DNA of 64,000 nucleotides from Nitrospinaceae bacterium (GTDB lineage: Bacteria > Nitrospinota > Nitrospinia > Nitrospinales > VA-1): contig JBHHVU010000008.1 in NCBI GenBank assembly GCA_046754465.1, forward strand, positions 17,214-81,213, in the 5' to 3' direction. The translations under genes and the position numbers were made by a program. The notes under the pieces were generated by a model that was given only the letters and a program-made list of their open reading frames with translations, made no database searches and had not been told where the DNA came from. This document shows, in pieces, positions 2,447-42,593 of this stretch; the first letter of the stretch is position 1; each line of letters opens with the position of its first letter.

Positions 2447-2508
2447 GATTCTGGCCCGATAGTTTATAGGGTTTGACTTTTTTTTATTGATGGGGCGAGC
2501 GGTATTTT

Positions 2509-3306
2509 TTAATAGGGATTCAGATTGACCCCGCCGTCGACGGTAAAATGCGTTCCGGTGATCCAGCACGCCCGGTCGGAGGCTAAAAACAGGACCAGGC
2601 CCGAGACATCCTCCGGCATTCCCATTCGTTTCAGGAGGACCTGGTCCGCGGTATGGGAGCGGATTTCCTCGGTCATCGCCTTCAAATCCTTTCCCGATTG
2701 TTGGCTGGCGAGTTGGGCTTCGAGCACCCAAGACCGGGTCCAGACCGGACCCGGGGCCACCGAATTGACCAGGATTTTATCCGGAGCCAGGGTTTGCGCG
2801 AGGGAGACGGTGAAATTGGACAAGGCGGCTTTCATGGCGCTGTAATGGGGAAACATTTCTCCGGGGCGGGAACCGGCAATAGAGGTGATGTTGATGATCC
2901 TCGGTGCGCCGGAATGCTTGAGCGTGGGAAGGAACAGCCGCGAAAGACGCACCGCCGGCATGAGGTTGATGTTGAAGGAATCCTGCCAGTCCTGGTCGGA
3001 GATTTCCAGAAAATTTCCCATTTTCACAATCGAGCCGACGTTATTGACCAGAACATCCAGTCCGCCAAAATCTTCCATGACCCGGTCGTGGAGGGATTGT
3101 ATGTCATCCCGTTTCGTGAGGTCCGCCGGGAGGAATAAATGCCCGGTCCCTTCGGCTTCCGAGGCTAGGGCGGAGAGCCGGTTTTCGGACCGGGCGCATC
3201 CGGCCACCCGGGCTCCCGACCGGGCGAAATCCAGCGCCAGAGTCCGGCCGATTCCCTCCCCGATGCCGGTAATGAGAACTTTCCGGCCTTCCAGATTCAT
3301 ATCCAT
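2509..3306 (-). CDS. short-chain dehydrogenase/reductase (classical SDR)
   Basis: TGxxxGIG motif (ITGIGEGIGRT), NNVG block and catalytic YxxxK (YSAMKAAL); 265 aa. Confidence 0.85.
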   Translation of the reverse strand: MDMNLEGRKVLITGIGEGIGRTLALDFARSGARVAGCARSENRLSALASEAEGTGHLFLPADLTKRDDIQSLHDRVMEDFGGLDVLVNNVGSIVKMGNFLEISDQDWQDSFNINLMPAVRLSRLFLPTLKHSGAPRIINITSIAGSRPGEMFPHYSAMKAALSNFTVSLAQTLAPDKILVNSVAPGPVWTRSWVLEAQLASQQSGKDLKAMTEEIRSHTADQVLLKRMGMPEDVSGLVLFLASDRACWITGTHFTVDGGVNLNPY

Positions 3307-27577: not shown

Positions 27578-30500
27578 TCAGGAAAAGTTTGGGACAGTAA
27601 GTTCAAGGGCTTGGATTCGACTGTTGTCGAAATCGGCGGCAAATAATAGGTTCCCATGGATGGATAATCCTCCAATCTTCCCGAACTGTCCCGCCCGTTT
27701 ACCAGGATTCCGGTAAATGGATACCACCTCCAGTTTCGAGTTGAGGTGAAGGATTTGATGGTACCAGTAATCCGTCGCGAAGATCCCATAGCCGGGATGG
27801 CGGGTCAGGAAATAGATTTCTTCGCACGCGAGACTTCCTTTATGGAGGCCGTTGATTAATCGGTGTTCCGAACTGAAATGCTTCAAAACATAGTTCGACC
27901 GGTCACTGACCAGGTACTCGCCGTCTTCCAGGCAGTACACGCTGACCGGCTCAAATAAATCCTCCGGCGCTTCCCCCCGCCGTTTTATGGAGCGGACAAG
28001 TTTCCCCTTTGAATCGTAGATTTGGATACGGTGATGATTGGGGTCCGCCGCCCAAACCCGGTTTTCCCTGTCGATGGAAAGGGAAAATATCGCCCCCAGC
28101 CTTTGTTCTGGTTCTTCCCGGTCTCCGAAAGACAGAACGAATTCCCCTTCGCGCGTAAATTTTTGGATGCGCGCGTTTTTTTCCTCCCCGACATAGATAA
28201 ACCCTTCACGGTCCAATTGAAGGCACGTTGGAAATCTGAAAAATCCCGGGGAGTTTCCCCAGCCCCCGAAGTGGGAAAGATAACCGCCCTCGGCAGAGAA
28301 CCGGTAAATTTGATGATGGTCGTAATCGGCAACGAGCAATTCCCCCTCTGGGGAATGAGCGATCCCATAAGGTTTCAAGAACTCCCCATGTCGCGGACCG
28401 TTTTTCCAGAATGAGAATTTGAATTTCAGCCCGGAGGAATTTCCGACGGGAAAGCCGCCGGTCTCCCCGGTCATTGGCCCGCATTCAAACAGCTTGTTCA
28501 CAAGGGCTCTGGCTTTGAACGCCCGCTCCAGACCGGATTCCAACTGTTCCAACGAGGCCTGGGTTTGGCCCAGTTGTTTCTGGGTTTCCATGAATTGATC
28601 CAGGTCGCCGGCGGACGGGGCCAGGTCCGTGGCTTCCAAAACCCCGGTCAACCGGGATACCTCAAAAACCCGAGTTTTTCGATCCCGGAGGTCTCCTTCG
28701 ATTTTTTCTTCCAGCTCCGATTGATGGGATTTTATTGCGGCAACCAAGGGTTCCACGGCGGAAGGGGGTTTGCTGTTTTTGCTTGAAATCAGCAGGGAGA
28801 AACCGAGGATCAGCCTGCAAAGGTTGTTGGCCTCATTGATTCCCAGGGTAAGGATCATCCGCCGTAGCAGGTTCATCTGAAATTCTAAAACGGCGATGTT
28901 GTTCTGAAGGGTGATCGGCGTTTTTTTGTCCTGGGGATTGACATGATTTAATTTGGCGTCCAGTTCCTGTTTTTGCCGGGTCAAGGTTTCCAATTGCCGG
29001 GAAATTTCCTGGTATTTGATTTCGTAAACCGTTTGATGATGCAAAATTTTCAGGAGCCGTTCGGCCCATTCCCCGCTCTGGTTTCCTATGGCCTTAAGGG
29101 GATACCCTTCGCCTCCGCAAACCAGTCTCGATTCATCTTTTTTGAGGAGCATCCCTTCGATCCGGACCGCGCGCGTTATATCTTCCAAATTCAATTCCTC
29201 CGAATCAAACTCGACGGGGGAAAAATCTTCGACCCCGATATCCCGCGTCCGGACAGGGTCCTGCGTATCCCAGCTGGCGATCCGGGTATCGGTCAGGTCT
29301 TTCAGCATGATCTCCAGGGAGGTGTGAAGCGGCCAATCTTCCTGAAACCCCAGCAACAATTTGGGAGGGGTTTCAGCACCCGGGGGGTCCAAGAACCCTC
29401 TCTGAAGGATCTTTTTTATTGTTGCCTCTTTGGGGAATTGAAGAGCCGCCCCTTTAAGAATACCCAGCAGGGTGCGCAGTTCGAACTGCAGGTGTTTGAG
29501 AACGTCCATCGCTCTGCGGTTGCCGTTGAACCGTGTGAGGAAGGTTTCCCATTTTTCCCGGTGGTCCGGCATCTCACCAAAAGCCTGCACCATGGCTTCC
29601 TCATTTTTTTCTCGTTCATCCATGATGCGAATCATGATTTGACAGAGGGAGGCGTACCGGTTTTCCATCGTTTGCAGGCACGGGGCGAGGCTGGCAGGGT
29701 CCCGCCCCGAGTTCAGGATATTGCCGAGGTATTCCGAAAACTTCTGGGCGGTTTTCCGGTAAAAATAGAACAGAACGCGAATTTCACGAAAAAGGGTTTT
29801 GTCGCGCTTCTCGGCCTCGAACAGCTCCCGGTTGAACTCCCGAGGGTCTCCCTTGTCTTCGAGAATCGATTGCTGTTCCGCGATCAAGCGGACGTTGTGT
29901 TCCCTCGCTGCCGCCTCCCATTTCCGGTGGCAATCGAGAACCGCCTGGCGGTCCGCGTCGAGGCGCCGGCCCAGAAGCTCCAGACCCTGGCGCGGCAAAT
30001 CCCCGGTCACGGCATCCTCCCCCCTGATGGCCCGGCGGCTGAAGTCCATGAGAAGGTCCACTGCGTCATGGCTGGGGACCTCCCCGCCGGTATTTTTCTT
30101 GGCGAGGGTCCGCGCCGCATTCTGCAAAGCACGCACCGCATTTGGGGTGTCCCCCTTTTCTTCCAGCAGCCGAGCCATCTGAAAGAGGAGTTCCCAGTTG
30201 CCGGGATCGTTCTGAATGCGCCGGTTGAGCAGGCTCTCCTGGGATTCCACCGGAGCCTGGAACTGAAGGATGTGCGTGTCGAATGTCAACCCCACGTGCA
30301 GGACTCCCCGGGGATCGATGGCTGTGAGACAGGGCGCTTGGATGAGCGCCGTCCCTTCCACCCCCCGCGAATCGAAAAGGAACCCTCCGTAGGAGGTGAA
30401 TCCCTGAATCCGGTCATTGTTGAGGTCGGCGACGTATAACAGATCGTTGGGACCCACGGCCACGCAAAGCGGATATTCAAACTGGGCCGGACCCGTTCCC

Positions 30501-31219
30501 CGTTCCCCGAAAGCCAGAACCTGGTTCCATTCCCGGTCGAATTTAACGATTCGGTGGTTGCCGCTGTCGGAAATAAAAAAGTTTCCCAGGCTGTCCCGGG
30601 CGATGGAAGTGGGAAATTCAAAAATCGGTGGAGCAAACAGGTGAGACGGCGTTTCAAAAATGCAAGCGAGTTGTTCCTCCAGGACCGTTCCGCGGGTTCC
30701 CACCCATCCCAGAGAGTCTCCGTCGGGACTGAAGAATTGAATCCGGTGGTTGTATCGCTCGACGACGATGAGCCGGCCGGAAGGATCGATGAGAAGGTCG
30801 TAAGGTTCGTTCAATTGGCCCCGTCCCTCGCCACAGGAGCCGAAGACGGCCAAGGGGTTTCCCTGCCGATCGAATTTTTGCACCCGGTGGTTCCAACTGT
30901 CCGCCACATAGATGTTGCCGTCCGCGTCTACGGCGGTTCCCTTCGGGTAATGGAGTTCGCCCGGTTTGCCGCCTTTCCCGCCAAAACACCGGATGAGCCG
31001 GTGATCCGCATCGTAAATTTGAATCCGGTGATTGAAATCGTCGGCGACGATCAGGTTCCCTTCCGGAGTAAAAGCGAAACCGGAGGGAGGAGACGGTTCC
31101 GTACCCGCCCCCTCCTGGGGGCGGAAGGAGTTTTCAAAATGAATGAGGGGTCCTGGATCCGTAAAGGACCGAATGGCTTGATCCAGGGATGAATCGGAAG
31201 ACGGAGTCATGCGGGGCAC
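27578..31219 (-). CDS. large cytoplasmic protein: N-terminal NHL beta-propeller, about 570-aa helical linker, C-terminal NHL beta-propeller
   Basis: NHL signatures in the N-terminal third (FNHRIQIYD, WNHRVQKFD, YNHRIQFFS, GNHRIVKFD, NNDRIQGF) and again in the C-terminal third (DHHQIYRF, KNARIQKFT, PNHHRIQIYD, SNYVLKHF, WYHQILHL, DNSRIQAL). No signal peptide. Start is GTG 31219 or ATG 31210. Confidence 0.8.
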   Translation of the reverse strand: MPRMTPSSDSSLDQAIRSFTDPGPLIHFENSFRPQEGAGTEPSPPSGFAFTPEGNLIVADDFNHRIQIYDADHRLIRCFGGKGGKPGELHYPKGTAVDADGNIYVADSWNHRVQKFDRQGNPLAVFGSCGEGRGQLNEPYDLLIDPSGRLIVVERYNHRIQFFSPDGDSLGWVGTRGTVLEEQLACIFETPSHLFAPPIFEFPTSIARDSLGNFFISDSGNHRIVKFDREWNQVLAFGERGTGPAQFEYPLCVAVGPNDLLYVADLNNDRIQGFTSYGGFLFDSRGVEGTALIQAPCLTAIDPRGVLHVGLTFDTHILQFQAPVESQESLLNRRIQNDPGNWELLFQMARLLEEKGDTPNAVRALQNAARTLAKKNTGGEVPSHDAVDLLMDFSRRAIRGEDAVTGDLPRQGLELLGRRLDADRQAVLDCHRKWEAAAREHNVRLIAEQQSILEDKGDPREFNRELFEAEKRDKTLFREIRVLFYFYRKTAQKFSEYLGNILNSGRDPASLAPCLQTMENRYASLCQIMIRIMDEREKNEEAMVQAFGEMPDHREKWETFLTRFNGNRRAMDVLKHLQFELRTLLGILKGAALQFPKEATIKKILQRGFLDPPGAETPPKLLLGFQEDWPLHTSLEIMLKDLTDTRIASWDTQDPVRTRDIGVEDFSPVEFDSEELNLEDITRAVRIEGMLLKKDESRLVCGGEGYPLKAIGNQSGEWAERLLKILHHQTVYEIKYQEISRQLETLTRQKQELDAKLNHVNPQDKKTPITLQNNIAVLEFQMNLLRRMILTLGINEANNLCRLILGFSLLISSKNSKPPSAVEPLVAAIKSHQSELEEKIEGDLRDRKTRVFEVSRLTGVLEATDLAPSAGDLDQFMETQKQLGQTQASLEQLESGLERAFKARALVNKLFECGPMTGETGGFPVGNSSGLKFKFSFWKNGPRHGEFLKPYGIAHSPEGELLVADYDHHQIYRFSAEGGYLSHFGGWGNSPGFFRFPTCLQLDREGFIYVGEEKNARIQKFTREGEFVLSFGDREEPEQRLGAIFSLSIDRENRVWAADPNHHRIQIYDSKGKLVRSIKRRGEAPEDLFEPVSVYCLEDGEYLVSDRSNYVLKHFSSEHRLINGLHKGSLACEEIYFLTRHPGYGIFATDYWYHQILHLNSKLEVVSIYRNPGKRAGQFGKIGGLSIHGNLLFAADFDNSRIQALELTVPNFS

Positions 31220-31344
31220 GGAGGAAATTTTTGGATGATTTTAGATACGTCGGCAAGTTCCGGGGGGAATTTAATCATAACCAATGGTTGATTACAATAG
31301 ATTTCGGCCTGTGCCGGCATAGCGAAGTCATTTGCCAATATAAA

Positions 31345-32871
31345 CTAAGGTGCGGCCGCCGTGGAAGCCTCAATTTCAAAATCCGGAACACCTTGATCCC
31401 ATTCACGGTTGTTTAAACAGGAATCCAAGTTGAATTTTTTATTCCCTAAAACGGGTTTGGGGTTTTCCTCCAGCATGAGCAAAAGGTAAAGATAGGCAAA
31501 AGCCATTTGGTGGTTAAAACAGTATTGCACAGCCAATTTCATGCAAGATAAGGCCTGAGTATAATTTTTTTGCATCAACCTTATTTCACCCAGGTGAAAA
31601 TAGGTTTTACCCCTGATTTCCGGGTTGATTTTTAAATTTAAAACTTTTGCAAACAATTTTTCCGCTTCACTTACCTTGTTGTGTTGTTTTAATTCGGAAG
31701 CAGTGTGGTAAAGGGAGATGAATTCAGGCGCTGCCCCCTTGTTTTCAGGATTATTGTATAAATCGGCGCAGGTTTGGGAAAATTGTTTGAGATTTATAGC
31801 CCAACAATTCTGACAGGCGTGCGGAATTTTTTCTCCGTTGGAACAGAAATGCGTATAGAGAAAATATCTCATGGGAAATGAATTCCAGGAATTGTTATTT
31901 GGGCTCTCCGAGATATTCATAGGCAGTTCGATAGGCCCGCAACAAATATTTGGTTTGTTTTTGCCATGAAAATTTATCCAGTTGTCCACATAAGGGCAGG
32001 TCCCGACGGAATCCTGCATTTTCTTTGTGTGTCCCAGGAACGTAATATGCATTTCCTCCCTATCCCACCGGGAAATGAGGGAATTTATTTTCCTCTTGGA
32101 TTCCTCAAAGTTGCTGAAAATGGATTTTTTGTACAGGTATTCACTAAAGGGAAGCATGGAAGACAACATGATATCCCTGATGCCCTTTCTTGATGCCGTT
32201 TGAATGACCTCATCCAGGTTATCAATATTTTCTCCGTTAATTGCGATGAGCAGCACCACAACAGGCAACGTGCTGTTTAATTCCCTTTTTTCTCTTTGAA
32301 CGATTTCAGCTTTTTCCCAAAATTTTTGGATATAGCTCTTTTCCCCGGCACCGTGCCCAAGGGTTGTTTCCCCGTCAAAAGAAAGGGTGAGAATTTTAAG
32401 TTTGGATTGAATAAGGGACCGGATCCTTTTTTTATTTAGAGGGACTCCGCTGGTATAAATTTGGGATTCCTTCTCTTTGATTTTCCCCAGAAAATAGGTC
32501 GTATGGGGTGACTCAAGGGTTTCCCCTGCACCCACAAAAATAATGTTGGACGCGGATTCCAACCAGGGGGACAATTGGTCGAATTGTTCTGGAAGAAAAT
32601 ACTTGTAATCATCAAACAAAAAAGTTCGATCATGAAAACCTGAATTGCACATCCTACATCCGAGGCCACAGGTATATGAAGAGTTGATGGTGATAAATTT
32701 CGGTTTCTCAGCCTCTAAGTCTTTGAGAGGAAGGGATTTGTTTTTCACCTTTTTCAAAAGATCCGAAAGAAGCCTTAAATCTCTCGAAGGATTTTTCAAG
32801 AGAAATCGAGCCCGGTCTAAATCGTCCGACAGAATGAAATGGGCCGACTCTTCTTTTAAGCTCTGAAACAT
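31345..32871 (-). CDS. radical SAM protein with a Cys-rich auxiliary segment and C-terminal TPR-like repeats (paralog B)
   Basis: CGLGCRMC (CxxxCxxC), VGAGETL, a downstream C-x17-CC ... C-x2-C-W cysteine constellation, and a C-terminal TPR-like helical region. ATG 32871 is preceded by AAAGGAA. Confidence 0.8.
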   Translation of the reverse strand: MFQSLKEESAHFILSDDLDRARFLLKNPSRDLRLLSDLLKKVKNKSLPLKDLEAEKPKFITINSSYTCGLGCRMCNSGFHDRTFLFDDYKYFLPEQFDQLSPWLESASNIIFVGAGETLESPHTTYFLGKIKEKESQIYTSGVPLNKKRIRSLIQSKLKILTLSFDGETTLGHGAGEKSYIQKFWEKAEIVQREKRELNSTLPVVVLLIAINGENIDNLDEVIQTASRKGIRDIMLSSMLPFSEYLYKKSIFSNFEESKRKINSLISRWDREEMHITFLGHTKKMQDSVGTCPYVDNWINFHGKNKPNICCGPIELPMNISESPNNNSWNSFPMRYFLYTHFCSNGEKIPHACQNCWAINLKQFSQTCADLYNNPENKGAAPEFISLYHTASELKQHNKVSEAEKLFAKVLNLKINPEIRGKTYFHLGEIRLMQKNYTQALSCMKLAVQYCFNHQMAFAYLYLLLMLEENPKPVLGNKKFNLDSCLNNREWDQGVPDFEIEASTAAAP

Positions 32872-32886
32872 AAAATTCCTTTCTTT

Positions 32887-34425
32887 TTAGGAGCATTTGC
32901 ACCGGACGTTTAAAAAAGGGTTCAAGGAGCTGAAGTCGATTTTCCCCGGCCTATAAGGGGAATGTTCGGCGAAGTGGTTGAGGTGGTCTGATTTTAAAGT
33001 TCTCCTTTTTTCTCTTTCTTTGGTTTTTCCTGTGAGTACCAGCAAAAGGTAAAGATAGGTAAAGGCCATTTGATGATCAAAGCAATTCCGCACCGTCAGC
33101 TTCATGTAGGACAAGGCTTCTGGATAGTTCTTGTTTTTTATCCGCAATTCTCCCAGATGAAAAAAAACTTTACCTTTAAGGGAAATATTCTGGGTGATAT
33201 CCAAAATCCTTGAGAACATCTCTTCAGCTTCCGTCTCACGGTTTTCTCTTTTTAAATTTGAGGCGGTTCGATACAGACTGAGAGTTTCCTGGAAGTTTTC
33301 CCCGCGGGTGAAAGATGTTGTTGCGCTCTCGCAATATTTTTGGGGGTCCATGATCCAACAGTTTTGACAGGCAAGGGGAAGTTTTGTTGGGTCGGAAGAA
33401 AAATGCAGGTATCGGAAATAGCGAAATGGAAAAGAATTCCAATACGTTTCGGGTGAAAGGTTCCGGGTTTCCAGGGGCAGGGTTATGGGCCCGCAACATA
33501 TCGAGGGTTGATTGCGGTTCAAGTTGAATATCAGATGTTTGTCTACGAAATAACATGTCTCCGTTCTTTCCTGCATTTGTTCTTCTTCAAATATTCTGAT
33601 ATGCATGCCCCGGGCATTTCCTTTTCTGATCGCCTTATTAATCTTTTCCCTTGAATCATTTAGATTAGAAAATATAGATTTCTCGAACAGGCGCTCGTTC
33701 CAGGGAATCATGAAAATCAAATCAACGATCCGGATTTCATGGGAATAAGCGGTTTGGAAAATATCATCCAAGTATTCCAGGTTTTCTCTATCCAAAGCAA
33801 GGGTCATCATTGCGATTGGATGATTGCAGGATAGTTCCCGTTTTGTTTCCTGGAAAACTTTCAATTTTTCCCAAAATTTTTGAATATATTTTTCATTTCC
33901 GGCGCCATGGCCAACAGCGGTTTTCCCATCAAAGGAGAAGTTGATATATTGAAGTTTGGATTGGATCAGCCTTATTGTTTTTTCCCTGTTTAGGGGGACC
34001 CCACTGGTGGTGATAAAAGAAATCTTGCCATTTAGTTGCTTAATAAATTCATAGAGGTATGGAGAGTCCAGCGTTTCTCCCATACCTACCAATACGACAT
34101 GTGATGCGGATTTTATCCAGGGGGATAATTGTTCAAACTCTTTTGGCTGCAGATATTTATAACCTGGAAAAAGGTAAGTGCGGTCCGAAAACCCCGCATT
34201 ACACATCTCACAACCGACCCCACAAGTATAAGAAACAGAAGTGCTGATGATTTTTGGGAGTGTCGCTCTGAAAATTTTTAGAGGGGCCTCTTTCCCGGTT
34301 GCCTTCATCAATAGGTCCCGCAGTAGGTTTAATCCGCGGGATTGCTGCCGGATAAGCCCGCGAGCCTTTTCCAGGTCATCCACAAATATGGATTGGATAA
34401 TCTCTTTTTTTATGTTGGGTGGCAA
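32887..34425 (-). CDS. radical SAM protein with a Cys-rich auxiliary segment and C-terminal TPR-like repeats (paralog A)
   Basis: CGVGCEMC, VGMGETL, C-x18-CC ... C-x2-C-W, and a TPR-like C-terminus. TTG start at 34425 is preceded by GAGGAA. About half the residues are identical to paralog B by eye. Confidence 0.8.
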   Translation of the reverse strand: MPPNIKKEIIQSIFVDDLEKARGLIRQQSRGLNLLRDLLMKATGKEAPLKIFRATLPKIISTSVSYTCGVGCEMCNAGFSDRTYLFPGYKYLQPKEFEQLSPWIKSASHVVLVGMGETLDSPYLYEFIKQLNGKISFITTSGVPLNREKTIRLIQSKLQYINFSFDGKTAVGHGAGNEKYIQKFWEKLKVFQETKRELSCNHPIAMMTLALDRENLEYLDDIFQTAYSHEIRIVDLIFMIPWNERLFEKSIFSNLNDSREKINKAIRKGNARGMHIRIFEEEQMQERTETCYFVDKHLIFNLNRNQPSICCGPITLPLETRNLSPETYWNSFPFRYFRYLHFSSDPTKLPLACQNCWIMDPQKYCESATTSFTRGENFQETLSLYRTASNLKRENRETEAEEMFSRILDITQNISLKGKVFFHLGELRIKNKNYPEALSYMKLTVRNCFDHQMAFTYLYLLLVLTGKTKEREKRRTLKSDHLNHFAEHSPYRPGKIDFSSLNPFLNVRCKCS

Positions 34426-34467
34426 AGAGGTTTCCTCTGGAATTTTTTTTTAGTTATTTTATCGAGC

Positions 34468-34495
34468 AAAAAAAATCTGATCCTTTTTGTGGATC
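34468..34495 (-). terminator. weak candidate terminator between methyltransferase B and the radical SAM genes
   Basis: On the minus strand, a 5-bp stem GATCC/GGATC with a 7-nt loop is followed by AGATTTTTTTT. The stem is short. Confidence 0.3.
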
Positions 34496-34577
34496 GGTAA
34501 AAAAAGAAAGATAATCCTGAGTATTGTAAACAGTCCTGGATGACCTTCCTGGGAGGAGAACCCAATCCCCCGCTGCT

Positions 34578-35636
34578 TCACATTCTGGTGACGACGCTGA
34601 GCATCCACAACCCCTGGGGATTGACGTGGGAGGAATATTTTTTGAATCCAAAACCGTGATAATTGAGAAAATGGATCAGGTCTTCCTCCTTGAACCACAG
34701 GCTCTCTCCCGTGACGCCCGACAGTCCGTCTTCCCAGCCCCCCTCGGGATAAACTTCGAACGTGTAGGTCCCGCTTTCCAGGGTCACGTCGCGGGTTTTG
34801 CGTCCGGGGGGGGAATGGTCAGAGGAGATATGACCGCACAGGACGATGGTATCGCTGTGTTCCATGCAGGTTTTCAGGAGCCACCAGGGCTTGTCCGAAT
34901 GATAGAACACCCCCGCGCAAAAAATGATGTCAATTTTTTCCGTCACCAGTTGGGGGAACAGGTGCATATCCCCCAGGATCAGTTCGTAGTTCCGCCAGTT
35001 GTAGAGGGACCGGATCACTGATGTCTTCGCGTAATTCAGAGGGCGGGCTTCCAGCCCGATGACTTTCCGGGGTTTCTGATCCATGATCATGACTGTGTCG
35101 TGCCCTTCAAAGGGTCCCAGTTCCAGAACCGTCTTGTTTTGAAAATCGACTCCGGGCGGGACCGGGTGCCAATAGGGCGATTCCCCCGCCAGGGGAGACA
35201 ACCCGCGACCGAAAAGAAAATCGTCGAACTGGAAATTTAGTGGATCGCGCAGTTCCTCGATCAGGGAATAAGTTCTCAGCAGGGTTTTCAGGTGGATTGT
35301 CCGGCAGGGGCACAGGGACTGGATTTTGAGAAAGGTGTCGTACAACTGGCTAGCCTCCGCGCTGGAAGCAATGACGACCACATCCTCCGCTTTCAATTCG
35401 GACAGTTCTGTCATGGGCCGGATGAGGTGACCCTCCAGGGTGTCTTTTTCACGATACGCATCCTCCTCGAAAACACCGATCAAGGGGATATCGGTATTTT
35501 CGAGGGCCATCAAAAAAAGCGACGCGGAAGCCTTCGTGCCCACCACGGCAATGCAGCCGTTCAACTGTTTGCACTGGGCATAAATACAGCGCCGTAAAAT
35601 CGCGTTATCGAGTGGGAGTTTTCCGGGATCTGTCAT
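34578..35636 (-). CDS. class I SAM-dependent methyltransferase with an N-terminal Rossmann-like domain (paralog B)
   Basis: Motif I VLELGPFEGHDT, IIFCAGVFYH, and an N-terminal IAVVGTKASASLFL...IPLIGVFEED domain. ATG 35636 lies 1 nt after the paralog A stop. Confidence 0.75.
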   Translation of the reverse strand: MTDPGKLPLDNAILRRCIYAQCKQLNGCIAVVGTKASASLFLMALENTDIPLIGVFEEDAYREKDTLEGHLIRPMTELSELKAEDVVVIASSAEASQLYDTFLKIQSLCPCRTIHLKTLLRTYSLIEELRDPLNFQFDDFLFGRGLSPLAGESPYWHPVPPGVDFQNKTVLELGPFEGHDTVMIMDQKPRKVIGLEARPLNYAKTSVIRSLYNWRNYELILGDMHLFPQLVTEKIDIIFCAGVFYHSDKPWWLLKTCMEHSDTIVLCGHISSDHSPPGRKTRDVTLESGTYTFEVYPEGGWEDGLSGVTGESLWFKEEDLIHFLNYHGFGFKKYSSHVNPQGLWMLSVVTRM

Positions 35637-35637
35637 C

Positions 35638-36702
35638 TTATTTTTTGGAGGAGGAATGGGTTTTTGTCACGACGCTGAAAATCCAGAGTCCGGTCCCTTC
35701 GATGACGGTGGAACCGTAGGATTCGTAATGGAATCCATAATAGTTCAGAAACCGGATCAGGTCTTTTTCAGCAAACCAAAGGCTGCAGGGAGTCAACCCC
35801 GATAAACCGTCGCCATCTTCCGGGTATTCCTCGAAATGATACGTTCCGCTTTCCAGGGTCACGTCGCGGGTTTTGCGTCCGGGGGGTGAATCCCCGGAGG
35901 CCACGTGGCCGCACAGAACAATGGTTTCACTGTGTTGCATACAAGTTTGCAGCAGCCACCAGGGTTTGTCCGAATGATAGAATACCCCGGAGCAGAAAAT
36001 AATGTCTATTTCATCTTTTATCAGGTGGGGGAAAAGATGCATGTCACCCAGAACCAACTCATGGTTTTGCCATTTGTAAAGAGACCGCATCACGGAGGTT
36101 TTGGCATAATTCAACGGCCGGGCTTCCAGACTGATCACTTTTTTGGGTTTCAGGCTCATGAGCATGACGGTGTTGTTTCCTTCAAAGGGTCCCAACTCCA
36201 GAACTGTCTTGTTTTGAAAATCGACCCCGGGCGGGACCGGGTGCCAATAGGGCGATTCCTCCTCCAGGGGAGACAAGCCGCGGCCGAAAAGAAAATCGTC
36301 GAACCGGAATATCAGTGGATCGCGCAGTTCCTCGATCAGGGAATAAGTTCCCAGCAGGGTTTTCAGGTGGATCGTCCGGCAGGGGCACAGGGAGCGGATT
36401 TTTTGGAAAGTATCGTACAATTCAGTCGCCTCGGCGCTGGAGGCGATGACGACCACATCCTCGGGTTTCAGCAGGGACAGTTCGTTCAGGGATCGAACCG
36501 CATGACCCTCGAAAAATTTTTGGTGACGGAACGCGTCGACCTCATACACCCCCAGGACTGGGATCTCGGTGCCGCCAAGGATCTTCAGCAGGAAAGACGC
36601 GGAGGATCGGGTGCCCACGACCGCGATGCGCGCGTTGTACTTCTTGCACTGCCGGTAAACCAGCCGCTCCAACCGATCTTGAACCTCCCGCCGGGATGCC
36701 AC
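35638..36702 (-). CDS. class I SAM-dependent methyltransferase with an N-terminal Rossmann-like domain (paralog A)
   Basis: Same architecture (VLELGPFEGNNT; IIFCSGVFYH). Start is set at GTG 36702 (SD GGGAGGA 10 nt upstream), giving 354 aa against 352 aa for paralog B. The 445-aa ORF-track version overlaps the upstream GT2 gene. Confidence 0.7.
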   Translation of the reverse strand: MASRREVQDRLERLVYRQCKKYNARIAVVGTRSSASFLLKILGGTEIPVLGVYEVDAFRHQKFFEGHAVRSLNELSLLKPEDVVVIASSAEATELYDTFQKIRSLCPCRTIHLKTLLGTYSLIEELRDPLIFRFDDFLFGRGLSPLEEESPYWHPVPPGVDFQNKTVLELGPFEGNNTVMLMSLKPKKVISLEARPLNYAKTSVMRSLYKWQNHELVLGDMHLFPHLIKDEIDIIFCSGVFYHSDKPWWLLQTCMQHSETIVLCGHVASGDSPPGRKTRDVTLESGTYHFEEYPEDGDGLSGLTPCSLWFAEKDLIRFLNYYGFHYESYGSTVIEGTGLWIFSVVTKTHSSSKK

Positions 36703-36719: not shown

Positions 36720-37658
36720 TCAATGAGTGATCATCAGTTTTTCGATCTCGGCATCGGGAACGGTCCTTGTCCTCTGGATGCGGTAGCGGCGCGCCAGCAG
36801 GGGAACGAGCTTCATCATGGCGGCGAACTTGCTTTTCAAGAGGACCGCGCCCTGCCCCCGGTAAGAAAAGTATTTGATGTCCGCTAGCTGGTGTTTCAGG
36901 ATGGTGAAGAAATATTTGAAGTACATTCCCAGGGACAAGTTTTTGATCAGGACATAAATATCGTTGCGCTTGCACAGGTAGACGTACCGGTCGCTATAGA
37001 GTCCCACCGTGGCCGTGCCGATGTGGTAGACCTTGGCTTGTGGCAAGTAGACGGCCTGGAATCCCTGGAGCTGACCGCGCATGTTCAGGTCCACGTCCTC
37101 GGCGAAGATGAAGAAATCCTCGTCGAAAACACCCACCGTGTCGAACAGTTCCCGGCGGTAGATTCCGGCCCCGGCGCAGGCGCCGAAAACGTATTCCTCC
37201 CGGTCGTACTGACCGGCGTCTTTTTCACCCTGCCCCCGCCCGCCGCCGGACGACCAGGCGTGGAACAGGTCGCCGGTGTTGTAAAAGGTGTCCCGTTGGT
37301 CCAGGAACATCATCTTGGTGGTTCCCATACCGCATTCCGGGTGCCGCTCCATGCCTTCGTAAAGCTGGGTGATCCAGCCGGGTTCCACCTCGATGTCGTT
37401 GTTGAGGAGGCAGATGTAATCCCCGCGTGCGGCCTGGATGCCCCGGTTGCAGGCCGTCGCGAACCCCATGTTCTCCGGCAGTTTGACCAGGCGGACCCAG
37501 GGGTATTCCTCCTCCACCAGTTCGCGGGATCCGTCCACCGAGCCATTATCCACCACGATCACTTCAAAAGCGCCGAAGGTGGACGCCGCGAGGGAATCCA
37601 GACACATCCCGATAAAACGGATTCCGTTCCAGTTGGGTACGATAACGCTGACTTTCAA
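36720..37658 (-). CDS. GT2 family glycosyltransferase
   Basis: VSVIVPNWNG...VIVVDNGSVDGS...NMGFATACNRG...LNNDIEV (GT-A fold, DxD-type). TTG start is preceded by AAGGAGG. Confidence 0.85.
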   Translation of the reverse strand: MKVSVIVPNWNGIRFIGMCLDSLAASTFGAFEVIVVDNGSVDGSRELVEEEYPWVRLVKLPENMGFATACNRGIQAARGDYICLLNNDIEVEPGWITQLYEGMERHPECGMGTTKMMFLDQRDTFYNTGDLFHAWSSGGGRGQGEKDAGQYDREEYVFGACAGAGIYRRELFDTVGVFDEDFFIFAEDVDLNMRGQLQGFQAVYLPQAKVYHIGTATVGLYSDRYVYLCKRNDIYVLIKNLSLGMYFKYFFTILKHQLADIKYFSYRGQGAVLLKSKFAAMMKLVPLLARRYRIQRTRTVPDAEIEKLMITH

Positions 37659-37695: not shown

Positions 37696-40131
37696 TTAAC
37701 AAGCTTCGGATGCCGGACGCTGTTCCGTCGCCGGGGCTTTTTCGTCCTCTGAGCGATCCCGTTGCGGGCGGGTCAGGAGATTCCTGGCGCCCTCATGAGA
37801 GGGGTCCAGTTTCAGGCATCGCCGGGCAAATTCTTTTTTTTGTTCGCCAGAGGACAACCGCGCCAGGCGAAACCAGGCCCCGGCGCGGATATGGCCGTAG
37901 GTGTCCGCCGAACGGGCGGCTTGCTCAAAAAGCGAGAAGGCCCTTTCGGGTTCGCCCATTCGTTCGAGCGCGGAGGCCCTGGCGTAGAGCAGCAGGGAAT
38001 TTTCCGGGTCCTGTTGTAAATAATGACCGAGGGTCTCGTGCTCCGGCCGTTGGTCCGCGTCCAGCCTGGCGAGGGCCACCGCCGCCTGCGTCTGCAGCCA
38101 TTCACGGTCTTTGCGGTTCCCGGTGTTGGCGGCTTCGGCGAATACGCGCCTCAGGCCTTCCCGGTCCTTCAATTCCGTCAACGATTCCATCAGGGATTGC
38201 CAGGCGTCGTGCCGGTTCGGAACCAGCGTCCGGAACCGTTCGAACCCCGCGGCCGCCTCCCGGTGGTTCCCGCGTTTCTGGTGGTGGAGGGCGGTCAGGT
38301 AGATCGTCTCCGTATTTTCCCCGAACCGCCGCGTCTCTTCCGCGAGTAAGTCCCCCGCCGTGTCCAGTTGCCCGAGCCTGATTTTCTGTTTGGCGAGCAT
38401 GAGGCGGACGTGCTCACAGAGAGGTTGCTCGTCGAGGGCCTTTTCAAAGGCGCGGGCGGCTTCTTCCGGCCGGTTGCCTTGATCGAGGATCTCCCCCATG
38501 TAGATGAGGCCCATCCAGTCATGCGGATTGAGCCGGACGAGTTTCCGGCATTCTTTCAGGGCGGTGGCGGGTTTTCCCCGCGCGAGGTCGGAGCGGTCGA
38601 TGCGGGGGGCGTGCCAGTCTCCCGCCGTCAACGCTTCCAGGATGCGCATCTTGTCTTTCCAGGGCAGGGAGAGGGGGTCCGTAGCGGCCGGGGCGCGTCG
38701 CGCCAGCCGATAGAGGCCAAACCGGGCGAGCACCGCTTTGACCGGTTCATATCCCAGGCCGGTCACTTCTTCCAGGAGCCCGAGGTCGAGGTCGGGAAAG
38801 GATTTTATGAGATAAACCGGTTTGTGGCGGACCAGTCCGCCGATGACGCTGTCAAAAAAGCCGGTCAGGGCCGGGGTGTCCCACGGGCCGATCGTATGAT
38901 GGAGAAAATTATCCGCGGCGGGCAGGTCCGTGTAGTGATAGAGCTGGGAAAAGGTTCCCCAGACGAAAATCCGTTCGCCGGACTCCCCGCGCCTCTTTAC
39001 CAGGCGTTTCAAAATTTTTCCCAGATGGGGAAGGTAAATATATTGGTCGAATTTTTCATAGCGCGCCAAGGTTTCGGGGTGGGCTGGCCGCAAGTAAAAA
39101 TCGCGAAGGCTGTAAAGGTTCCACAGCGTGAGTCCCAGAAAAACGGCGAAACCTCCCGCCGCGGCGGGTCCTCCCACCTGGTGCAGTCCGTCCATCGCCA
39201 GTCCGCCTCCCAGGGCCAGCAGGGCCAGCCAGGGAAGGTAATGATACCGGGAAAAACCCCGCTGGGCGAAAATCATGAACAAGGTGACCCCGGTGAAGGG
39301 AACGAACCAGATGCCATGGCCTCCCAGGAAAGAGGGGATCAAACCGGGGGCTCCGAGGACCCAGAGCGGAAGTGTTTGCAGGATCAGGTGGCGAATTTCA
39401 CGGGCCACGCTGAAGTACATGGACTTGGTGCGGGTCAACCGCAGGGTGGTGGCCATCCGAGTCCGCATTTGCGCGCGGGAGGCAGCATCCCAAAACCCCA
39501 GTTTCCATTCGATGCCGTTGGAAACGGTGAACGGCAGGCAGCAGGCCAGGATAAAAACGGCCATGGGTTGCAAACCCCATTGCAAGGCGATCACCGGGGT
39601 CAAGGCCGCGGCGTACAAGCCGGTGGTGTATTTGGGGATGGTGGCGAGGCCAAAGCACGCTCCGGCCCAGAACACGGCCTCGGGTCCCTGGGTCAAAAAA
39701 GCCAAACCCAGCAAGGTCCACGGAATGTAAAACTGCTCGTGATTGAAGGAACCCGCGGTGAGATCGGGAGAGGTCCCGTAACACGCGTGCAACAGACCCC
39801 CGCCCAAAGCCGCCCAGGGATTCTGCGTCATCGCCATCAGCGCACCGTAAATGACCAGGGAAGCGGCGACATGAAACACGGTTTGCAGGTGGCGGATTCT
39901 CCGCACCCCCCCGGCGGAGTTTCCGTACAGTTTGTCCAAAAGGAGCATCCGCCAGATGGGAATGCCGATGATCTGCAAATCCCGTTTCCATTGGAATCCC
40001 CGATCGGCGAACCGGGCCCGGTAGGTATAAATGGCGAAATCGTCGTCCAGGGGGAAATCCCGGAAAGGGAGGCGGCATGCCACGCCCGTCAAAATGATCA
40101 GGAGCGGAAAGGTGACCTGTAAGATATCCAT
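37696..40131 (-). CDS. polytopic membrane protein (GT-C-like) fused to C-terminal TPR repeats
   Basis: The first ~480 aa have many TM helices, with an acidic first-loop motif (FPLDDDFAIY). The last ~330 aa are TPR repeats. Confidence 0.55.
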   Translation of the reverse strand: MDILQVTFPLLIILTGVACRLPFRDFPLDDDFAIYTYRARFADRGFQWKRDLQIIGIPIWRMLLLDKLYGNSAGGVRRIRHLQTVFHVAASLVIYGALMAMTQNPWAALGGGLLHACYGTSPDLTAGSFNHEQFYIPWTLLGLAFLTQGPEAVFWAGACFGLATIPKYTTGLYAAALTPVIALQWGLQPMAVFILACCLPFTVSNGIEWKLGFWDAASRAQMRTRMATTLRLTRTKSMYFSVAREIRHLILQTLPLWVLGAPGLIPSFLGGHGIWFVPFTGVTLFMIFAQRGFSRYHYLPWLALLALGGGLAMDGLHQVGGPAAAGGFAVFLGLTLWNLYSLRDFYLRPAHPETLARYEKFDQYIYLPHLGKILKRLVKRRGESGERIFVWGTFSQLYHYTDLPAADNFLHHTIGPWDTPALTGFFDSVIGGLVRHKPVYLIKSFPDLDLGLLEEVTGLGYEPVKAVLARFGLYRLARRAPAATDPLSLPWKDKMRILEALTAGDWHAPRIDRSDLARGKPATALKECRKLVRLNPHDWMGLIYMGEILDQGNRPEEAARAFEKALDEQPLCEHVRLMLAKQKIRLGQLDTAGDLLAEETRRFGENTETIYLTALHHQKRGNHREAAAGFERFRTLVPNRHDAWQSLMESLTELKDREGLRRVFAEAANTGNRKDREWLQTQAAVALARLDADQRPEHETLGHYLQQDPENSLLLYARASALERMGEPERAFSLFEQAARSADTYGHIRAGAWFRLARLSSGEQKKEFARRCLKLDPSHEGARNLLTRPQRDRSEDEKAPATEQRPASEAC

Positions 40132-41470: not shown

Positions 41471-42593
41471 ATGCTCGACGATTATAAAAAGGAATATGAG
41501 GACCTGAGGCGGCGAATCGATCTTTTGCGGGGGTATCTTTGACGTCGATAATCATTTGAAGGAAATGGAAGGCCTCGACATCGAGGTGGCGCGTTCCGGA
41601 TTTTGGGACGACAATGAATCCGCTCAAAAGATTCTGCAAAGGCGCTCCACCCTGCAGCGCACCGTCAATGTCTGGAAAGAACTGCACCAGGAAGGCGAGG
41701 ACCTCGGGGCGATGGTCGAATTGGCCGAGGAAGAGGAGGATGAGTCCCTGTCGGCCGAAATCAAGACGTCCCTCACCCGCCTCCGCGAAAAAATATCCCA
41801 GGCCGAGTTGAAGGCGATGTTGTCCGGCGAAAAGGATTTTAACAACGCCATCATGTCCATCAACTCCGGAGCCGGGGGAACGGAATCCCAGGACTGGGCT
41901 CAGATGATCCTGCGAATGTACATGCGCTGGGCCGACCGGAACGGGTACAAATCGGAAATCCTGGACATACAGTACGGGGAGGAAGCGGGGATCAAGAGCG
42001 CCACGCTTCTCTTCACCGGGGATTACGCCTTTGGATATTTGAAGGCGGAGATCGGTGTCCACCGTCTCGTGCGGATCTCGCCCTTCGACGCCAACAAACG
42101 CCGCCACACCTCGTTCGCGTCGGTCTTTGTCTACCCGGAAATCCAGGATGAAATCGACGTGGAGATCAAGGACGATGATTTGAAGATCGATGTCTACCGC
42201 GCCTCCGGGCCTGGCGGGCAGGGTGTGAACACGACCGACTCCGCGGTGCGGCTCACCCACATCCCCACCGGCATCATCGTCCAGTGCCAGAACGAACGGT
42301 CCCAATATAAAAACAAGGCTTCGGCCATGAAGGTTCTGAAATCCCGTCTTTACGAACTGGAAATGGAAAAACAGGAAGAAGAAAAAAAGGTGATGGAGAA
42401 ACAGAAAAAGAAAATCGAGTGGGGCAGCCAGATCCGGTCCTATGTCCTGCACCCTTACCGCATGGCCAAGGACCTGCGCACGGGCGTGGAAATCGGCAAC
42501 GTGGATGCCGTGCTGGACGGTGATCTGGGACCCTTCATCGAGGCCTGCCTGCTGCAACAAAGCGGAAAACGCCTGGCTTCCTCGAAAAACTGA
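41471..42593 (+). CDS. prfB: peptide chain release factor 2, requiring a programmed +1 frameshift (join 41471..41539, 41541..42593)
   Basis: Frame 0 encodes MLDDYKKEYEDLRRRIDLLRGYL then TGA. The +1 frame continues with the SPF motif (RISPFDA) and GGQ (GPGGQGVN). The joined product is 373 aa. RBS AAGGAGA lies upstream of ATG 41471. Confidence 0.95.
41527..41543 (+). promoter_or_regulatory. RF2 autoregulatory +1 frameshift site
   Basis: GCGGGGGTATCTTTGAC contains an internal SD-like GGGGG, a 3-nt spacer, the slippery CTT and an in-frame TGA followed by C. From the GGGGG onward it matches the E. coli site as I recall it. Confidence 0.9.

Follow-up and report, generated by a model that had tools for sequence, protein, structure and literature searches.

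The locus lies in a 64-kb stretch of DNA (the window, WIN in the trees) from the metagenome-assembled genome of an uncultured Nitrospinaceae bacterium, the host. All features considered here are on the minus strand and are described in the direction of transcription. The conserved upstream flank consists of an 811-aa protein with a hydrophobic N-terminal half and a C-terminal TPR domain (37696-40131; labeled "GT-C" in an earlier, sequence-only reading and GT-C/TPR here) and a GT2 glycosyltransferase (36720-37658). Two methyltransferase genes follow: MT_B (35638-36702, 354 aa from a GTG at 36702) and MT_A (34578-35636, 352 aa), a Methyltransf_9/CmoB-like gene of host GC. The two are 73% identical, and MT_B is a tandem duplicate of MT_A that arose within the lineage. 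Next come two radical SAM genes: rSAM_B (32887-34425, 512 aa, TTG start, GC 0.424, GC3 0.474), identical to the NCBI MAG protein ACE5E9_03700 except for the called start codon, and rSAM_A (31345-32871, 508 aa, GC 0.411, GC3 0.472), in which a radical SAM core is followed by a C-terminal TPR domain. The conserved downstream neighbor is a gene for a 1213-aa NHL-repeat protein (27578-31219), with a host-like GC of 0.549.

The radical SAM pair and its gaps form a low-GC block (31220-34577) with 41.5% GC, compared with 55.4% in the rest of the window (z = -7.3 relative to all non-overlapping 3358-bp segments: mean 55.2%, sd 1.9%, minimum 51.3%). Two-breakpoint maximum-likelihood segmentation of 27-39 kb places the breakpoints at 31225 and 34530 (2-lnL support intervals 31215-31270 and 34513-34700), with 41.1% GC inside and 56.1% outside (LLR 107). 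Both transitions thus lie within or at the edge of the two intergenic gaps around the pair; the right-hand one could reach up to ~120 bp into the methyltransferase 3′ end. The sequence-only reading had described a sharp island coincident with the two genes and bounded by the gaps 31220-31344 and 34426-34577, and the calculation bears out both points. GC3 is 0.472 in ORF 31345-32871 and 0.474 in ORF 32887-34425 (z ~ -4), against 0.685 ± 0.054 (minimum 0.516) in the 44 other ORFs of the window, and GC1 is 0.42-0.44 against ~0.52-0.64 in nearly all of them. Relative synonymous codon usage (RSCU) of the block genes correlates with that of host genes at 0.32-0.46, whereas host genes correlate with the rest at 0.87 ± 0.08 (minimum 0.54). 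The dinucleotide relative-abundance distance is 123 for the block vs. 41 ± 12.5 (maximum 72) for host segments (z = 6.6), and the tetranucleotide distance deviates still further (z = 18.9). The pair is therefore foreign by every compositional measure (GC, GC3, RSCU, dinucleotide, tetranucleotide), with codon usage and oligonucleotide signature deviating independently of GC.

rSAM_A and rSAM_B are anciently diverged paralogues (47% identity); motifs and fold matches place them in the radical SAM superfamily. The CX3CX2C motif of rSAM_A is formed by C68/C72/C75 and the GGE-like motif by G114-x-G116-E117-T118. C68/C72/C75 and G114/G116/E117/T118 are invariant across 25 family sequences, and the family has four further invariant cysteines (292, 310, 353, 356). 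Both proteins have their full length, and the 47 invariant columns of the family are all conserved in each. The Pfam radical SAM profile (PF04055) scores 31.2 bits for rSAM_A (cut-off 29.5) and 26.0, below the cut-off, for rSAM_B, and the SPASM profile (PF13186) matches neither. Because a sequence profile search of the PDB gave only TPR proteins and a marginal radical SAM match, a fold search was needed. Its matches include PqqE, anSME and MoaA, and the AlphaFold model (pLDDT 84.9) best matches SPASM/twitch enzymes (Foldseek E 3e-8 to 1e-6, target TM 0.5-0.6). The model thus points to a SPASM/twitch-like radical SAM domain joined to a C-terminal TPR domain (rSAM-TPR family), with an auxiliary Fe-S cluster that is only putative. 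The family shares the CX3CX2C and GGE-like motifs and extra C-terminal cysteines with PqqE, anSME, SkfB, SuiB, EpeE and BlsE, but at only 12-16% identity. Unlike SPASM enzymes, it has just four invariant auxiliary cysteines and lacks a Pfam SPASM match, and its N-terminal three-helix extension and ~130-aa C-terminal TPR domain are absent from these proteins. Assignment to the tungsten-cofactor oxidoreductase radical SAM maturases (TIGR04317; 66.5 and 59.5 bits vs. an NCBIfam cut-off of 380) or to TIGR04311 (52.4 and 43.9 bits vs. 400) was rejected. Among the data searched here, the family comprises ~90 sequence clusters, in Nitrospinota only and without a characterized member; a literature search for it in Nitrospinae returned nothing relevant.

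The order PEPCK-SpmS-NHL-[slot]-GT2-GT-C/TPR-prfB is syntenic across Nitrospinaceae. In the loci from other genomes compared with the window (L-numbers), the slot is filled by rSAM-TPR gene(s) or by a methyltransferase; both occur together only in the present genome. Five loci or locus pairs (L021/L022, L023/L024, L025, L029, L034) have a single methyltransferase gene adjoining NHL (GT2-MT-NHL), with a spacer of 84-208 bp and no radical SAM gene. The synteny comparison proposed in the sequence-only reading thus comes out on the side of acquisition. The first four are the nearest relatives of the host for every comparable flanking gene. Identity to the host NHL protein is 48-51% in methyltransferase-only relatives vs. 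36-42% in rSAM-type loci; the corresponding values are 62% (L021, L025) vs. 49-56% for GT-C/TPR, 81-82% vs. 75-76% (55% in L011) for GT2 and 81-86% vs. 73-79% for PEPCK. The NHL tree resolves as (WIN,(L023,(L021,(L025,L029)))) at 100% bootstrap, with L034 as a more distant member of the same clade, and the methyltransferase tree has the same shape. Because its tree mirrors that of NHL, MT_A is native. Elsewhere the radical SAM genes are themselves the native occupants: L004 carries them in the slot upstream of NHL in the same B-then-A tandem order, and single or double copies occupy the homologous site in L005, L006, L008, L011, L013 and L015.

Low GC is not a trait of the family, because the radical SAM genes of 11 other loci agree in composition with the sequence around them. 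In a set of 20 family genes outside the window, the GC of a gene tracks that of its flanks (slope 0.87, r = 0.92), and the two window genes lie 0.10-0.12 under this line (z = -4.1 and -3.7). In the 11 loci, family genes share the dinucleotide signature of their flanks (z -1.7 to +2.1), against z = 6.0 in the window. A family-intrinsic low GC was rejected on these grounds. Relatives do carry the genes at host-like composition (L008, 0.569 vs. 0.575; also L011 and L015), which the sequence-only reading had expected to count against acquisition. Such a finding argues for transfer and not against it, since a low GC then cannot be a property of the family as such. GC3 of the block falls on the GC3-versus-GC12 line of the family (z = 0.3-0.8), so no amelioration is detectable; as the test for it (excess GC3 for given GC1+2) was not significant, it allows no age estimate.

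Directly after the MT_A stop lies a host-type stub (34558-34577; 65% GC over 34555-34577). In L021/L025 the methyltransferase-NHL spacer opens with a stretch (CACAGACGGATTGTGTTCC) to which this stub, AGCAGCGGGGGATTGGGTTC, is homologous by both position and sequence. On the other side, a trailer (31298-31344) separates the rSAM_A stop from a promoter-like box, TTGTAA-N17-TTAAAT (31269-31297; 12-mer TTATGATTAAAT at 31280-31269), which is conserved ahead of NHL in either type of locus and lies 3.27 kb downstream of the stub. The insertion therefore took place inside the ancestral methyltransferase-NHL spacer, and the right junction lies in or just upstream of the box. The NHL-proximal -35-like element resembles that of rSAM-type loci (CTATTGTAA vs. 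CTATTGTTA), a likeness that spans only ~9 nt. Acquisition into an existing operon had been proposed from the sequence: the insertion stands, but its site is the spacer between the GT/methyltransferase operon and a separately promoted NHL gene. Against all fetched loci, blastn-short with leader and trailer gave chance 12-14-mers and the promoter box only.

The leader of the block (34426-34557, 34% GC), upstream of rSAM_B, contains the weak hairpin with T8 that had been noted earlier (34495-34468). On the minus strand it reads GATCC-ACAAAAA-GGATC (34495-34479; 5-bp stem with 3 GC pairs, 7-nt loop), followed by T8 (34475-34468). The sequence also shows a -10-like hexamer, TAAAAT (34461-34456), and, ahead of the TTG codon that starts rSAM_B, a ribosome-binding site, AGAGGA. 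Terminator-like sites in the region are not in excess (6 vs. 6.9 ± 2.7 in shuffles), terminator and promoter consensus scans gave counts at or under chance, and the leader RNA fold is no more stable than shuffles (z = -1.36). The sequence-only reading had also raised the possibility that the island has its own transcription unit; the proposal that the hairpin with T8 delimits one has no statistical support. A riboswitch or leader RNA finds no support, because an Rfam scan of 30.8-35 kb (E ≤ 1) had zero matches; a search of both gaps for a small ORF encoding a precursor peptide found nothing credible.

The phylogeny of the radical SAM genes is suggestive of incongruence with that of the host, and only suggestive, because the deeper nodes of the neighbor-joining tree have < 50% support; the closest relatives of the host lack the gene. 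Besides the host itself, only L008 in its clade bears rSAM, and rSAM_B was sister to the L008 gene in 0 of 100 bootstrap trees; rSAM_A groups with sequences from 35% GC contigs (P0002-P0008) at 86% bootstrap. The nearest homologues are only 52-53% identical. Codon usage of the block correlates best with Nitrospinaceae of 43-45% GC (L003, r = 0.77; L004, 0.67), and that of host genes matches L021 (0.94) and L008 (0.93). A donor search by dinucleotide signature found no sampled locus at the within-genome level (best 79, L003). The genes flanking the closest radical SAM homologues (L018, L019) match neither the window nor the other loci and thus carry no donor information.

The block is most probably a ~3.27-kb two-gene islet that a Nitrospinaceae lineage with 55% GC gained by lateral transfer. 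Its donor, which is unsampled, would have had ~42-45% GC and most likely also belonged to the Nitrospinaceae/Nitrospinota. Horizontal acquisition, as the sequence-only reading had suggested, is favored by the foreign composition and the empty site in the closest relatives, together with the split spacer and the native presence of the family at the homologous site elsewhere. Since rSAM-TPR genes are native at the same position in other Nitrospinaceae, the event is best seen as the transfer of a cassette from one homologous locus to another. The lack of any integrase, transposase, tRNA or repeats agrees with this view. The donor would have carried rSAM_B and then rSAM_A in tandem immediately upstream of its own NHL gene, as in sampled relatives. 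In the recipient, the pair landed in the short spacer between the native methyltransferase and NHL genes, within the NHL promoter region. One part of the split spacer is the stub of 20 nt that follows the methyltransferase stop, and the other is the promoter box beside NHL; the islet would extend roughly from 34557 to 31298/31281. Shared NHL-promoter/NHL sequence may have anchored one side by homology or microhomology, and the other side would have been joined illegitimately. Such homology-facilitated illegitimate recombination, here presumably after uptake of free DNA and without a mobile element, is a known route according to the accessible part of PMC3240628. Since the block shows no detectable amelioration, the event would be recent compared with the divergence from the methyltransferase-only relatives. 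Both enzymes are probably intact, with a putative protein, peptide or glycan substrate belonging to a variable "tailoring" locus and the TPR domain as a putative binding module. This kind of transfer is ordinary; it is mapped unusually cleanly here.

Vertical inheritance with differential loss is an unlikely account of the same pattern. The clade ancestor would have had both methyltransferase and rSAM, the methyltransferase-only relatives and L034 would have lost rSAM, e.g., by deletion between two ATTG(T/G) -35-like boxes, and low GC would reflect gene-specific constraint or selection for AT-rich codons. Two similar boxes of this kind do flank the block and could mediate a deletion. Gene-content parsimony alone does not separate a gain from retention plus two losses, because a native rSAM gene occupies the site in L008, a member of the same NHL clade, and the window is sister to, not nested in, the methyltransferase-only group. 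Family genes are also 0-0.04 lower in GC than their flanks in most relatives. However, the block genes deviate by 0.13-0.14, which is three to four residual standard deviations past the family trend, and no constraint forbids high GC, since family genes reach 52-57% in L008 and L011. In no other genome compared is the composition-normalized dinucleotide signature foreign, the neighboring genes in the same direction are fully host-like, and both the separation of rSAM_B from the L008 gene and the grouping of rSAM_A with genes from 35% GC contigs speak against this account.

Delivery by a mobile element (an IS composite, integron-like cassette or phage/ICE fragment whose mobility genes and repeats decayed or never co-integrated) is about equally improbable. 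It would suit the sharp edges in intergenic DNA, and in other lineages further low-GC genes have entered the neighborhood: L011 has an AAA_21/AbiEii-like ATPase and L019 a Mrr-type nuclease beside rSAM. Yet the block holds two genes with a short leader and trailer only. The sequence-only reading had seen neither a tRNA nor obvious flanking direct repeats, and indeed there are no tRNAs in all 64 kb and no direct or inverted repeats bounding the block: a search for target-site duplications or terminal inverted repeats gave nothing but paralogy echoes spaced 1554 nt apart. Between 26.6 and 41.3 kb, no examined gene has an integrase or transposase domain, and no family homologues were found on IMG/VR viral contigs or PLSDB plasmids. 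A classical mobile genomic island (integrase/tRNA/direct-repeat type) was rejected on the absence of tRNA, bounding repeats and viral or plasmid homologues, the genes around the block being of GT, MT, rSAM and NHL type. Least probable, indeed very unlikely, is an assembly or binning chimera, in which the conserved flanks would have led to the joining of a piece from a co-occurring Nitrospinaceae genome of lower GC. The source is a metagenome-assembled genome, and the locus is syntenic among co-occurring relatives, with a 12-nt promoter box in common. But two further, independent Logan assemblies, SRR29324594 and SRR29324587, reproduce the block at 100% and 99.94% identity, one spanning both junctions and the other the NHL-side junction, although all Logan and MAG assemblies may come from related samples. 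The sequence shared at the junctions is far shorter than any assembler k-mer, and a simple swap of locus types would remove the methyltransferase genes, whereas the contig has both cassettes. For genome curation, this compositional break in a MAG is thus real and no chimera.

Surface-polysaccharide and glycoconjugate loci (O-antigen/capsule) contain variable low-GC regions that are swapped between conserved flanking genes. Similarly, the conserved GT2 and GT-C/TPR genes and NHL-SpmS-PEPCK enclose a lineage-variable slot here. In contrast to these loci, no genes for sugar-nucleotide synthesis, flippase or polymerase were identified, and the conserved partner, an NHL-repeat/coiled-coil protein that looks cytoplasmic, is no export machine. 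The islet interpretation has counterparts in genomic islets free of mobility genes, as far as the accessible part of PMC3240628 describes their mechanism: a small foreign block with sharp intergenic edges, an empty site in relatives, no integrase, tRNA or repeats, and one junction in sequence shared with the presumed donor locus. Here, the putative anchor is only a 12-29 nt promoter box, possibly with the NHL 5′ region. Cassette displacement at conserved loci is also described for Vibrio cholerae T6SS effector-immunity modules (accessible part of PMC5361080). There too, the incoming module takes a fixed position and older genes are kept beside it, as are the native methyltransferases here; no T6SS is present, and the analogy covers only the mode of locus evolution.

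A broader reading is rather doubtful: the slot would be a cassette-exchange hot spot, rSAM-TPR a new protein- or glycan-modifying class and this genome an intermediate between old and new cassettes. The slot between GT2/GT-C-TPR and NHL may be dedicated to such exchange in Nitrospinaceae, and the swapped enzymes (CmoB-like methyltransferase, rSAM-TPR, SPASM rSAM, B12-rSAM, sulfotransferase) may serve to vary a single shared product or target, perhaps a glycoconjugate or the NHL protein itself. If so, rSAM-TPR would capture its substrate with the TPR domain in place of an RRE, and the present genome would be an intermediate caught in the act with the old and the new cassette. The transfer itself offers a clean, base-level case of gene-cassette movement without a mobile element between related lineages of the main marine nitrite oxidizers, most of them uncultured. 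Candidates for functional work are the rSAM-TPR family and the variable tailoring slot, which adjoins the gene of a conserved giant NHL-repeat protein.

Across the compared loci, the slot contents comprise CmoB-like methyltransferase, Methyltransf_24, B12-rSAM, SPASM rSAM, GT2-TPR, sulfotransferase and rSAM-TPR genes, and several cassettes among them have a lower GC than the genomes that carry them.

The 64-kb window contains a single deep GC trough. In a 1-kb sliding profile, GC content falls to 40-44% between approximately 31.0 and 34.5 kb, against a background of 50-65%. The block at 31220-34577 has 41.5% GC, compared with 55.4% in the remainder of the window (z = -7.3), the minimum among other 3358-bp windows being 51.3%; this bears out the sequence-only reading of a sharp low-GC island coinciding with two radical SAM genes. 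By likelihood segmentation with two breakpoints, the block runs from 31225 to 34530, with support intervals (31215-31270 and 34513-34700) that match both intergenic gaps, where the transitions had been proposed to lie. The two genes, rSAM_A (31345-32871, 508 aa) and rSAM_B (32887-34425, 512 aa), are both ORFs of the minus strand. Their GC3 is 0.47, compared with a mean of 0.685 ± 0.054 for the 44 other ORFs, and GC1 and GC2 are likewise low. Codon usage of the block genes correlates with that of the host at r = 0.32-0.46 (host genes, 0.87 ± 0.08), and the block is foreign in its dinucleotide signature, normalised for GC (z = 6.6), as well as in its tetranucleotide usage (z = 18.9), so that each profile suggested for checking the island (GC3, codon and tetranucleotide) deviates.

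Low GC content as a trait of the protein family is rejected, because family genes elsewhere match their own flanks. Over 20 family genes of other loci, gene GC follows flank GC (slope 0.87, r = 0.92), with gene-minus-flank offsets of about -0.05 to +0.06, mainly -0.04 to 0. Among loci fetched from relatives (numbered with the prefix L), the rSAM gene and its flanks have GC fractions of 0.569 and 0.575 in L008, 0.522 and 0.509 in L011, 0.477 and 0.478 in L015, and 0.41 and 0.445 in L004. The window rSAM genes lie 0.13-0.14 under their own flanks (z = -4.1 and -3.7 vs. the family trend). Family genes also share the dinucleotide signature of their flanks in 11 other loci (z from -1.7 to +2.1), compared with z = 6.0 in the window. 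The amino-acid fractions FYMINK (0.33-0.34) and GARP (0.18-0.19) of the window rSAM proteins are like those of homologues from genomes of 43-48% GC; homologues in 51-57% GC genomes have approximately 0.25 for each. Block GC3 falls on the family's line of GC3 against GC1+2, a comparison in which amelioration is not detectable, and the composition of the two genes therefore appears to be in equilibrium with a genome of about 42% GC. Codon usage of the two genes is nearest to that of non-family genes of Nitrospinaceae with 43-45% GC (L003, r = 0.77; L004, 0.67; L006, 0.60), while host genes are nearest to L021, L008 and L025 (0.89-0.94).

Both proteins contain the radical SAM motif CX3CX2C (C68/C72/C75), a GGE-like motif, further invariant cysteines (C292, C310, C353, C356) and a C-terminal TPR domain. 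The AlphaFold model of rSAM_A (pLDDT 84.9, pTM 0.86) finds its best structural matches in the SPASM/twitch enzymes PqqE, BlsE, anSME, SkfB, SuiB and EpeE, at 12-16% identity. Matches to NCBIfam "maturase" models are far under the cut-offs, and the rSAM-TPR family is therefore uncharacterised. Database searches yield 93 cluster representatives of the family; all taxon-named ones belong to Nitrospinae, Nitrospinaceae, Nitrospina or Ca. Nitromaritima. rSAM_A and rSAM_B share 47% identity and sit in separate old paralogue groups, being sisters in 0/100 bootstraps of the family trees. rSAM_A groups with the cluster representatives P0002-P0008 (86% bootstrap), a group with members on contigs of 35% GC. 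Save for the start codon called, rSAM_B is the protein of an NCBI Nitrospinaceae MAG, and its nearest relatives are P0034 and P0039 (52-53% identity), the latter on a contig of 44% GC.

Fifteen genome loci carrying the family were fetched and their genes mapped onto those of the window. The order PEPCK - SpmS-like (opposite strand) - NHL (NHL-repeat protein) - slot - GT2 - GT-C/TPR - (GT2) - prfB - MBL is kept across Nitrospinaceae. One or two rSAM-TPR genes occupy the slot in L004, L005, L006, L008, L013 and L015; in all of these except L013 such a gene directly precedes NHL and points the same way, and L004 also has the B-then-A tandem of the window. Both L011 copies point away from NHL. In the window the slot also contains two CmoB-like methyltransferase genes, MT_B and MT_A (34578-36702, minus strand). 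They are sisters in the methyltransferase tree and 73% identical, and relatives have one copy; they are therefore a native tandem duplication within the lineage. The true start of MT_B is a GTG at 36702, the mechanical ORF of this upstream copy running 256 bp into GT2. The window's methyltransferase is absent from all seven rSAM loci (L004, L005, L006, L008, L011, L013, L015), and there is no rSAM gene in the methyltransferase-type loci L021/L022, L023/L024, L025, L029 and L034. Its closest homologues (72-74% identity) are single genes followed by NHL after 84-208 bp, so that the proposed synteny comparison finds methyltransferase and NHL adjacent in the nearest relatives. L021/L022, L023/L024, L025 and L029 are nearest to the host for every comparable flanking gene. 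Identities to the window in methyltransferase-type vs. rSAM-type loci are 48-51% (L021, L023, L025, L029) vs. 36-42% for NHL, 62% (L021, L025) vs. 49-56% for GT-C/TPR, 81-82% vs. 75-76% for GT2 (55% in L011), 81-86% vs. 73-79% for PEPCK, and 56-59% vs. 44-50% for SpmS. The NHL tree has the topology (window,(L023,(L021,(L025,L029)))) with 100% bootstrap. L008 (rSAM type, 57% GC) and L034 (methyltransferase type, 41% GC) lie at the base of this clade, the remaining rSAM-type loci form a separate one, and the methyltransferase tree is shaped like the NHL tree.

The spacer between methyltransferase and NHL is continuous in the nearest relatives and is therefore interrupted in the window by some 3.27 kb of foreign sequence. 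Directly after the methyltransferase stop, L021 reads CACAGACGGATTGTGTTCC and L025 reads CATAGAGTGGATTGTGTTCC, with CAATT(G/A)TGATTAAATCCC coming 4-5 nt later. The MT_A stop of the window precedes AGCAGCGGGGGATTGGGTTC (34577-34558), which occupies the equivalent position and shares 10 of the 11 core bases with the L021/L025 spacer; past it, the sequence turns to a leader of 34% GC. At the other end, a promoter-like box (TTGTnn-N17-TTAAAT, 31297-31269, minus strand) with the near-invariant 12-mer TTATGATTAAAT lies 49 nt before the NHL start. The box is kept upstream of NHL, exactly or with 1-2 changes, in the readable spacers of all relatives but L004 (L005, L006, L008, L011, L013, L015, L021, L023, L025), whatever gene precedes NHL. 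In the window its -35-like element and 5′ context (CTATTGTAA) are closer to those of L004-L006 (CTATTGTTA) than to the methyltransferase type (GGATTGTGT), and downstream of the -10-like element the sequence (TCCCC, AAAATCATCC) resembles methyltransferase-type loci. These approximately 9 nt of evidence suggest a right-hand crossover inside the NHL promoter that the two locus types share. An empty-site allele, with MT_A joined directly to this promoter, would read GGATTGGGTTC...TTATGATTAAAT within about 30 nt.

The foreign composition and the empty site in the nearest relatives support, with refinements, the proposed horizontal acquisition of the pair: the block is best described as a two-gene islet free of mobility genes, moved between homologous loci of related lineages into the MT-NHL spacer. 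The incoming fragment would derive from a genome where the rSAM pair natively precedes NHL; it would have recombined through homology or microhomology on the NHL side and been joined illegitimately at the other end, about 20 nt past the methyltransferase stop. As read from the sequence, this pattern fits homology-facilitated illegitimate recombination, a mechanism defined in PMC3240628. Vertical retention with two losses elsewhere is allowed by gene-content parsimony: the rSAM of L008 is native, and the window branches as sister of the methyltransferase-only group instead of falling inside it. However, retention cannot account for an anomaly of composition and signature confined to two genes of the window genome. 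It also appears to be at odds with the rSAM gene trees, since vertical descent would predict rSAM_B to be sister to the L008 rSAM, which is never seen, and we consider it very unlikely.

Delivery by a mobile element that has since decayed has no positive evidence in its favor and is just as unlikely. As the sequence-only reading had noted, no repeats bound the block and there is no tRNA in the 64-kb window. Family homologues were found neither on IMG/VR viral contigs nor on PLSDB plasmids, an Rfam scan of the block region gave no match, and the two gaps hold no credible small ORFs. An assembly chimera, finally, is scarcely credible. It would not explain the presence of both cassettes together, and it is contradicted by independent Logan assemblies of two other runs (SRR29324594 and SRR29324587), which match at 100% (3926 bp, both junctions) and 99.94% identity (3248 bp, NHL-side junction). 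Methyltransferase and rSAM cassettes occur together only in the window and these two contigs of the same population. The transferred islet is a fresh instance of a well-known phenomenon; what remains of most interest is the rSAM-TPR family, which is uncharacterised, together with the variable slot beside the conserved NHL gene.

GT-C/TPR, GT2, MT_B and MT_A make up one compact unit, with 37, 17 and 1 nt between successive genes; rSAM_B and rSAM_A are a tight pair 15 nt apart, and NHL follows a conserved promoter-like box of its own. The weak hairpin with T8 reported for the upstream gap is present on the coding (minus) strand of the leader at 34495-34468, followed by a TAAAAT hexamer, and could act as terminator of the methyltransferase operon. 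However, terminator-like sites are no commoner here than in shuffled sequence, and the leader shows no unusual degree of structure. The rSAM pair could plausibly be transcribed as its own unit.

O-antigen and capsule loci are the comparison model for a variable region exchanged between conserved flanks. In other relatives the slot holds a SPASM rSAM (L015, 8807-9973, 42% GC in a 48% GC locus), Methyltransf_24 methyltransferases (L004, L006), B12-binding rSAMs (L004, L021), a GT2-TPR protein (L004) or a sulfotransferase (L012). The neighbourhood thus appears comparable to a variable region within a glycoconjugate or tailoring locus. Some relatives also carry, within their glycosyltransferase block, a B12-binding radical SAM gene that the window lacks (L021, 4753-6177; L004, 3831-5345); therefore the conserved part of the locus varies too. 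An AAA_21/AbiEii-like ATPase gene of 34% GC lies between SpmS-like and NHL in L011 (3976-5913, minus strand; 51% GC locus); it represents a low-GC insertion that arose independently in the equivalent neighbourhood of another lineage. Low-GC patches beside family members also include an Mrr-type nuclease gene of 39% GC in L019 (1554-3173), next to its rSAM, and a segment of 37-42% GC including a GT-C-like gene in L003 (6873-13613), adjoining genes of 49-55% GC. Upstream of the L004 slot there are three paralogous ORFs in tandem, each of about 195 aa (1173-3144; the copy tested has no Pfam match), and two ORFs of similar size (203 and 191 aa) occur in L006 (1560-2829). In Ca. Nitrohelix vancouverensis (L028, CP048620, 1798253-1819311) a methyltransferase homologue lies beside a type II CRISPR-Cas9 locus, an unrelated context; linkage of the methyltransferase to the GT/NHL locus is therefore not universal. 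Finally, the mechanical prfB (RF2) ORF of the window (41556-42593) lacks its N-terminus because the canonical +1 programmed frameshift motif CTTTGAC lies just upstream (41537-41543, plus strand).
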